Shown piece after piece: positions 943 through 1,093 of a stretch of 64,000 bases of DNA; within the stretch, counting starts at the first letter, position 1; each line of letters opens with the position of its first letter. The DNA is taken from assembly GCF_048403405.1 (NCBI RefSeq), contig NZ_CP183129.1; one strand, given 5' to 3'. Under the pieces are notes generated by a model that was given only the letters and a program-made list of their open reading frames with translations, had not been told where the DNA came from and made no database searches. The translations under genes and the position numbers were made by a program. This DNA is from Escherichia coli. Lineage in GTDB: Bacteria; Pseudomonadota; Gammaproteobacteria; Enterobacterales; Enterobacteriaceae.

Positions 943-959
943 AAAGCCCTGCGGGCTTT
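943..959 (+). repeat. Perfect 7-bp stem / 3-nt loop hairpin (AAAGCCC-TGC-GGGCTTT) just after the tnpA stop; candidate IS subterminal hairpin or tnpA terminator
   Basis: Inverted repeat read directly from the sequence, followed by TTTT. Confidence 0.5.
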
Positions 960-1093
960 TCGCCTTATATCCCCGCCCGCATTGGGCGAGGGTTTACGGC
1001 GTTTTTCGCTAAGCAATGACTACCCTGTTTCGCTTGCATCTCCGGTGAGTTTTGCCACCCTTATAAGATGTTTCAACCAGAAAGAACAATAAC

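Follow-up and report, generated by a model that had tools for sequence, protein, structure and literature searches.

The left end of an ISEc46 copy is joined to native DNA with a retained ptrB promoter in Escherichia coli

The left-end hairpin of IS200 of Salmonella is located upstream of tnpA and acts as a transcription terminator, blocking transcription that enters the element from outside, and in IS605 of Helicobacter pylori tnpA and tnpB are divergent, as they are in ISEc46. In IS608 of Helicobacter pylori the guide at the right end is GAAT, which is paired with TCAA. IS608 and IS605 are the model elements for single-strand "peel and paste" transposition. IS1, IS2, and IS10, whose outward or hybrid promoters exemplify activation of, or polarity on, adjacent genes, are the described cases to which an IS located immediately upstream of a co-oriented chromosomal gene can be compared. 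For IS608 the spacings between hairpin and cleavage site are 19 and 10 nt and the guide and target tetranucleotides are AAAG and TTAC (PMC3201880), and the TnpB protein of ISDra2 is a model for the use of a TAM and a guide (PMC8612924).

The DNA analyzed here (the window, a stretch of 64,000 nucleotides of Escherichia coli contig NZ_CP183129.1) begins inside an element of the IS200/IS605 family, and the coordinates of the features discussed are listed in Table 1. It is an ISEc46 copy; RefSeq already annotates this element in hundreds of genomes, and the window is 99–100% identical to hundreds of the annotated copies. The tnpA product matches the Y1_Tnp profile over its full length (Pfam PF01797, E 5.3e-39) and carries the RefSeq label "IS200/IS605-like element ISEc46 family transposase." The remainder of tnpB and the right end of the IS are positioned before the window start; the full TnpB of the matching locus in strain N3 (L001, in which coordinates are those of the window plus 3151) is comprised of 389 aa with the domains HTH_OrfB_IS605, OrfB_IS605, and Cas12f1-like_TNB (Pfam). 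The features that define the IS200/IS605 family are present, namely a Y1 TnpA, a TnpB, the lack of a target duplication, subterminal palindromes on the same strand, and a fixed tetranucleotide target, and nothing in the window copy differs from ISEc46 as given by PGAP and ISfinder-based annotation (Y1 transposase and TnpB, no duplication, hairpins at both ends). The literature found on ISEc46 consists of listings in resistance-genomics papers only. The product of ptrB contains the Peptidase_S9_N and Peptidase_S9 domains (Pfam). The first-pass annotation had described ptrB as directly downstream of the tnpA end on the same strand, with 156 bp (938–1093) between the tnpA stop at 937 and the ptrB start at 1094; these coordinates are correct when re-read, and the Y1_Tnp match together with the ORF coordinates confirms an IS200/IS605 element that is co-oriented with ptrB through tnpA. 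A 52-aa ORF at 934–1092 that bridges the IS and the native DNA has no Pfam family and was rejected as spurious, and an E-value scan of positions 1–1400 gave no match to Rfam families (sRNA, riboswitch, or omega-RNA).

Table 1. Coordinates of ISEc46 and ptrB features in the window
Feature	Position	Strand	Description
tnpB 5' part (RNA-guided nuclease gene), ISEc46	1–455	-	First 151 codons
Sigma-70 promoter-like site for tnpA (predicted)	449–477	+	TTAACA-17-TATAAT with TG; 11/12 consensus matches
Promoter-like site for tnpB (predicted)	484–511	-	TTGATA-16-TAAAAT; 10/12 consensus matches
tnpA, Y1 (HUH) transposase of ISEc46	512–937	+	141 aa, TTG start; Pfam and RefSeq annotation
Hairpin 1	943–949/953–959	+	AAAGCCC-TGC-GGGCTTT; 7-bp stem, 3-nt loop, 5 nt past tnpA stop, T at 960
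Hairpin 2, extended stem-loop	961–1001		CGCC 961–964 pairs with GGCG 998–1001; encloses the imperfect palindrome
Left-end imperfect palindrome (IPL)	971–991	-	CCTCGCCC-AATGC-GGGCGGGG, T.G wobble; predicted TnpA-binding hairpin
Guide-like tetranucleotide AAAC	992–995	-	Immediately 5' of IPL foot, top strand
Last ISEc46 base, left end	1008		IS-free alleles, junction reading, IS deletion in silico, divergence point of eight copies
Target and left cleavage tetranucleotide TTAG	1009–1012	-	CTAA on +; native, unduplicated; in K-12 empty site
Conserved ptrB promoter block	1027–1065	+	GTTTCGCTTGCA (1027–1038), variable 11 nt, TTTTGCCACCCTTATA (1050–1065)
K-12 ptrB transcription start equivalent, A	1068	+	By sequence identity; 26-nt leader 1068–1093
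ptrB, oligopeptidase B (protease II)	1094–3154	+	686 aa, intact; length equal to K-12 gene

Comparison of positions 938–1093 with IS-free alleles of the ptrB upstream region, as the first-pass annotation had suggested, resolves the 156-bp gap into the last 71 bp of ISEc46 (938–1008) and 85 bp of native DNA (1009–1093). Positions 850–1300 were searched by megablast against 5,426 complete E. coli genomes, 5,425 of which matched. The whole query was covered in 400 genomes, where the annotation reads "ISEc46 family transposase" followed by ptrB, and the others match from 1009 on. The yebE–ptrB site is thus split by the IS in 400 of the 5,426 genomes (~7%) and uninterrupted in 5,025. The empty site of K-12 reads CCTGTCATCAT/CTAAGCAATGACT across the junction, or CATCAT/CTAAGC in short form. 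In the IS-bearing allele the yebE-side junction is CATCAT/GTGACTGC, with the element beginning GTGACT, and the ptrB-side junction is GGCGTTTTTCG/CTAAGC, with the element ending TTTTCG. When read base by base against K-12, the junction is unambiguous and has no doubled bases, indicating that there is no target duplication at the yebE–ptrB insertion, and taking the 1,763-bp element out of strain N3 (L001 2397–4159) restores the exact sequence of the empty site. Terminal inverted repeats are absent, the element beginning with GTGACTGC and finishing with GTTTTTCG without an inverted-repeat relation between them. Eight ISEc46-like copies at seven independent sites were compared, the six further sites being near yfaY, next to a tRNA-Arg island, on an IncHI1B plasmid, on an Enterobacter plasmid, on the Salmonella spv plasmid, and in a tnpA-less plasmid derivative; the Enterobacter plasmid copy is 87% and the copy from the Salmonella spv virulence plasmid (L009) 79% identical to ISEc46. 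The copies end in TTCG (GGCGTTTTTCG), or in CTTG in the case of the Salmonella copy, followed by CTAA, past which the sequences diverge, and CTAA (TTAG on the IS top strand) adjoins the left end at 7/7 independent insertion sites. The IS terminus is therefore placed at 1008/1009, as the IS-free alleles begin at 1009 and the copies share this terminus. The ISEc46 ends and the TTAG target given here were derived from these junctions and copies and not from the ISfinder entry. The structure as a whole is in all likelihood that of an ordinary, lineage-fixed insertion in which the ISEc46 left end has been joined to native DNA with a retained ptrB promoter. A complete ISEc46 would have been inserted 3' of TTAG in the yebE–ptrB spacer by single-strand "peel and paste" transposition, without duplication.

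The 3' end of tnpB is positioned 40 nt from the yebE-side IS terminus, indicating that this side is the right end and that the minus strand of the window is the top strand of the IS, so that 938–1008 shows the left end in reverse. Folding of the 75-nt IS end is more stable than that of 200/200 shuffled sequences (z = -3.4). Hairpin 1, which has a GCCC/GGGC core, folds with -8.0 kcal/mol as RNA and also folds as DNA. It is retained in 8/8 ISEc46-like copies, including the 79%-identical Salmonella copy, and is therefore a genuine element of the IS and not a chance structure. The first-pass annotation had suggested that the hairpin at 943–959 may be the subterminal structure of the IS, a terminator, or both; it is borne by the IS, but the subterminal TnpA-binding role fits 971–991 instead, hairpin 1 being positioned further toward the interior of the element. 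That annotation had also lacked the larger hairpin (971–991, with its extended stem 961–1001) and the precise position of the IS terminus, 1008. Identical 8-bp stems, CCTCGCCC/GGGCGGGG, are found at both IS ends in the same orientation on the tnpB-sense strand (L001), and because of this identity with the hairpin at the other end, 971–991 rather than 943–959 is the probable TnpA-binding structure and would be bound by TnpA. On the top strand the left end reads TTAG/CGAAAAACGCCGT-AAAC-CCTCGCCC-AATGC-GGGCGGGG, whereas the right end reads GAAG-CCTCGCCC-GACA-GGGCGGGG-AGCAGTCAC up to its terminus. Both 8-bp stems contain a T.G wobble on the top strand only. In the Enterobacter copy one substituted base creates another T.G wobble on the minus strand but an A.C mismatch on the plus strand. 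The distance from the hairpin foot to the cleavage site is 17 nt at the left end and 9 nt at the right end, with a 13-nt linker between the left terminus and AAAC on the IS top strand.

This arrangement resembles that of IS608, which also has subterminal palindromes on the same strand, a tetranucleotide target that doubles as the cleavage site of the left end, and a guide located 5' to the foot of the hairpin, and the spacings are similar, 17/9 nt in ISEc46 compared with 19/10 nt in IS608 (PMC3201880). The guide-like tetranucleotide and the cleavage site form the pairs AAAC/TTAG at the left end and GAAG/TCAC at the right end; both match under the pairing rule of IS608 with the last base pair exchanged, and by analogy with IS608 AAAC and GAAG would act as guides. 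In contrast to IS608, the target of ISEc46 is TTAG and not TTAC and the guide-like sequence is AAAC and not AAAG, a change that the IS608 pairing rule predicts, and the right end finishes in TCAC instead of TCAA, with GAAG as the putative right guide. A further difference from both IS608 and IS605 is that tnpA of ISEc46 faces outward over the left end, which places the left-end hairpins in the 3' region of tnpA and not in the 5' region.

A transcript from the predicted tnpA promoter would pass hairpin 1 and then hairpin 2 on its way to ptrB. Hairpin 2 has an RNA fold of -21.8 kcal/mol with a 4-bp G+C base, and U5 (1002–1006) follows directly 3' on the plus-strand RNA, which is terminator-like. 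The T5 run at 1002–1006 is kept in 7/8 copies and missing in the Salmonella copy L009, and given this absence it may not have been selected as a terminator. Hairpin 1 has a TTTT tail with three of the T residues inside the stem, does not pass the terminator-scan criteria, and is a candidate weak tnpA terminator or 3'-end stabilizer. A terminator scan with strict criteria found no intrinsic terminator site in 400–1300, and the terminator idea for hairpins 1 and 2 comes entirely from separate RNA folding. On these predicted folds, termination at the left-end hairpins is plausible, and tnpA transcripts directed toward ptrB would probably be stopped for the most part by the two stem-loops. ISEc46 shares with IS200 of Salmonella, a member of the same family, a stable terminal stem-loop that could keep transcription from crossing the IS boundary; unlike in IS200, the hairpins of ISEc46 follow tnpA and would halt transcripts on their way out of the IS.

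The alternative is that in IS-bearing strains a sizeable part of the ptrB mRNA is initiated at the tnpA promoter (~484) and crosses both hairpins, in which case the IS would increase the expression of ptrB or alter how it is regulated. Such transcripts would find tnpA and ptrB on one strand with 156 bp between them, a promoter-like site at 449–477 that is near-consensus with an extended -10 and faces ptrB (TTAACA-17-TGATATAAT in the consensus scan), a first hairpin that is weak (-8.0 kcal/mol, short T tail), no site that passes the terminator scan, and a T-run after hairpin 2 that is not conserved in L009. They would nevertheless have to traverse two successive stem-loops, the second with its fold of -21.8 kcal/mol, 4-bp G+C base, and immediately following U5, the transposase genes of the IS200 family are usually very weakly expressed, and with the native promoter intact such transcripts are not needed for ptrB expression. 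We consider this alternative unlikely. With a near-consensus predicted tnpA promoter (11/12), even partial read-through into ptrB could matter. The predicted promoter sites for tnpA (449–477, plus strand) and tnpB (511–484, minus strand) are positioned back-to-back with their -10 boxes 6 bp apart, and the two IS genes may compete for RNA polymerase. ISEc46 is similar to IS1, IS2, and IS10 in lying immediately upstream of a chromosomal gene in the same orientation, but in contrast to these elements its end has no outward or hybrid promoter detected by consensus scan or by eye, and ptrB keeps its own promoter.

A single start for ptrB, at NC_000913 1926889 on the minus strand with a 26-nt 5' UTR, was reported by Kim et al. 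2012 (PMC3415461, Table S1) from one high-throughput data set with 35 reads in K-12 and not in an IS-bearing strain, and the -50 to +1 sequence listed for this start is GACTCCCCTGTTTCGCTTGCATCCCCGGTGAGTTTTGCCACCCTTATAAGA (PMC3415461). The supplements of Romero 2014 and ROSE have no entry for ptrB start sites; among the start-site sets examined, Kim 2012 alone provided one. The K-12 sequence from -50 to +1 equals window positions 1018–1068 except for two SNPs, A for C at 1022 and T for C at 1041, and the IS junction is at -60 relative to A1068. Alignment of the 230 nt upstream of the ptrB ATG from 15 Enterobacteriaceae, with loci taken from one genome per species, shows that GTTTCGCTTGCA and TTTTGCCACCCTTATA are almost invariant in Escherichia, Citrobacter, Enterobacter, Klebsiella, Kosakonia, Kluyvera, Phytobacter, Cedecea, and Pluralibacter. 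The block formed by these two sequences is wholly downstream of the IS junction and inside the -50 to +1 region of K-12. In Citrobacter, Enterobacter, Klebsiella, Kosakonia, Kluyvera, Phytobacter, and others the yebE stop codon is at most ~30 nt upstream of the first conserved sequence, indicating that the ptrB promoter is compact. The spacer of E. coli, 208 bp in K-12, has roughly 125 bp extra, a stretch that contains the IS insertion point and is not conserved in other genera, and the IS at -60 would replace only poorly conserved spacer DNA.

The first-pass annotation had raised the possibility that the native ptrB promoter was displaced, which would leave ptrB silent or dependent on an IS-borne or hybrid promoter. 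This idea is not supported, as the start region mapped in K-12 and the conserved block are both retained in the 85 bp of native DNA, and what is found immediately downstream of the IS terminus is an intact native ptrB promoter. No sigma-70-like pair of -35 and -10 hexamers was found in 1009–1093 (consensus scan), and the center of an RpoS SELEX peak is upstream of the insertion point (PMC5493296), both of which would agree with displacement. However, the proximity of the yebE stop to the conserved block in other genera leaves no room for a distal promoter, the scan shows an IS end devoid of outward or hybrid promoters, and ptrB stays intact in 400 genomes, making displacement exceedingly improbable. 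The vague displacement idea can be replaced by a map with the IS end at 1008, the target TTAG, the block at 1027–1065, and the retained start at 1068. With the native promoter retained, transcription of ptrB most likely continues to start there, and ptrB expression would be unchanged. This promoter block is strongly conserved, non-sigma-70-like, and apparently uncharacterized so far. TATAAG (1062–1067) directly abuts the mapped start and therefore cannot be the -10 element of A1068. By eye, sigma-54, sigma-E, and sigma-28 gave no fit to the ptrB promoter, and a sigma-32-like reading, CTTGCA-N16-CCACCCTTA, was set aside as a weak match. Nothing specific was found in the literature on the ptrB promoter or on a link to rpoH.

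A working core promoter could still have lost an upstream input through the IS, either read-through from yebE or a site beyond -59 that is UP-like or binds an activator. The RpoS-holoenzyme SELEX peak in the yebE–ptrB spacer, mapped at low resolution to ~140 bp upstream of the start site (PMC5493296), could be such an upstream site that is now separated from ptrB. The insertion at -60 and the 1.76 kb of IS that now break any yebE read-through would be in line with altered regulation, as would a possible link to the C-to-T change at 1041 (-27 of ptrB), which is exclusive to IS-bearing haplotypes. Two observations stand against this: beyond E. coli the sequence upstream of the junction is not conserved, and position 1041 falls within the variable spacer that separates the two conserved blocks. 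A regulatory loss of this kind is distinctly unlikely in our view. The broader proposal that ptrB expression has been rewired by the IS in ~7% of complete E. coli genomes, through tnpA read-through past leaky left-end hairpins or lost RpoS-dependent input with 1041T as a linked adjustment, is very doubtful; if it held, ptrB would be a gene modulated by an IS in a major lineage of extraintestinal pathogens.

The distribution of the element is consistent with the preferred reading of an ordinary insertion fixed in a lineage. In E. coli ~80% of the ISEc46 left ends are at the ptrB site (400/498 places), with a median copy number of one, and the titles of the IS-bearing genome records include ST69 and PCN033. 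In all 400 of these genomes ptrB is intact and annotated. None of the 5,025 empty sites has the flanking haplotype of the IS-bearing genomes, as a precise-excision revertant would, and the closest empty sites show a single mismatch to the joined flanks, at 1041, which is T with the IS and C without it. Since 1041 is in the variable spacer between conserved blocks, 1041T is probably a neutral lineage marker. The lack of a same-haplotype empty site and the difference of the best empty sites at 1041 fit one old insertion that was vertically inherited, with no detectable precise excision. The insertion, already known and annotated, would be a benign and probably vertically inherited marker in ~7% of complete E. 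coli genomes, and the junction 1008/1009 combined with 1041T provides a clean lineage marker.

From the ends, target, and guide tetranucleotides deduced for ISEc46, a prediction would also follow for the TAM that its TnpB nuclease recognizes. On the model of ISDra2, the TAM of this TnpB would be TTAG and its guide the flank ATGATGACAGGTAATG at the yebE-side IS end (L001 2397–2440), and this predicted combination is exactly the empty yebE–ptrB site. Targeting of the empty site by TnpB could be part of the reason that no same-haplotype empty site is seen. A tnpA-less ISEc46 derivative on plasmid pZ1323CEC0005_1-2 (L003 1781–3073) has the tnpB start codon ~50 bp from the left-end hairpins and has kept the CTAA flank. 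The 79%-identical relative on the Salmonella spv virulence plasmid (L009 2455–3366) is located beside spvD, with a truncated tnpB that is annotated as a helix-turn-helix protein, and it occurs in 387 Salmonella plasmid records. In Escherichia albertii (L014 5079–5393) there is no intact yebE between yebF and ptrB, and the sequence upstream of ptrB is again homologous to that of E. coli from CAATGACT (window position 1014), 5 nt from the ISEc46 insertion point.
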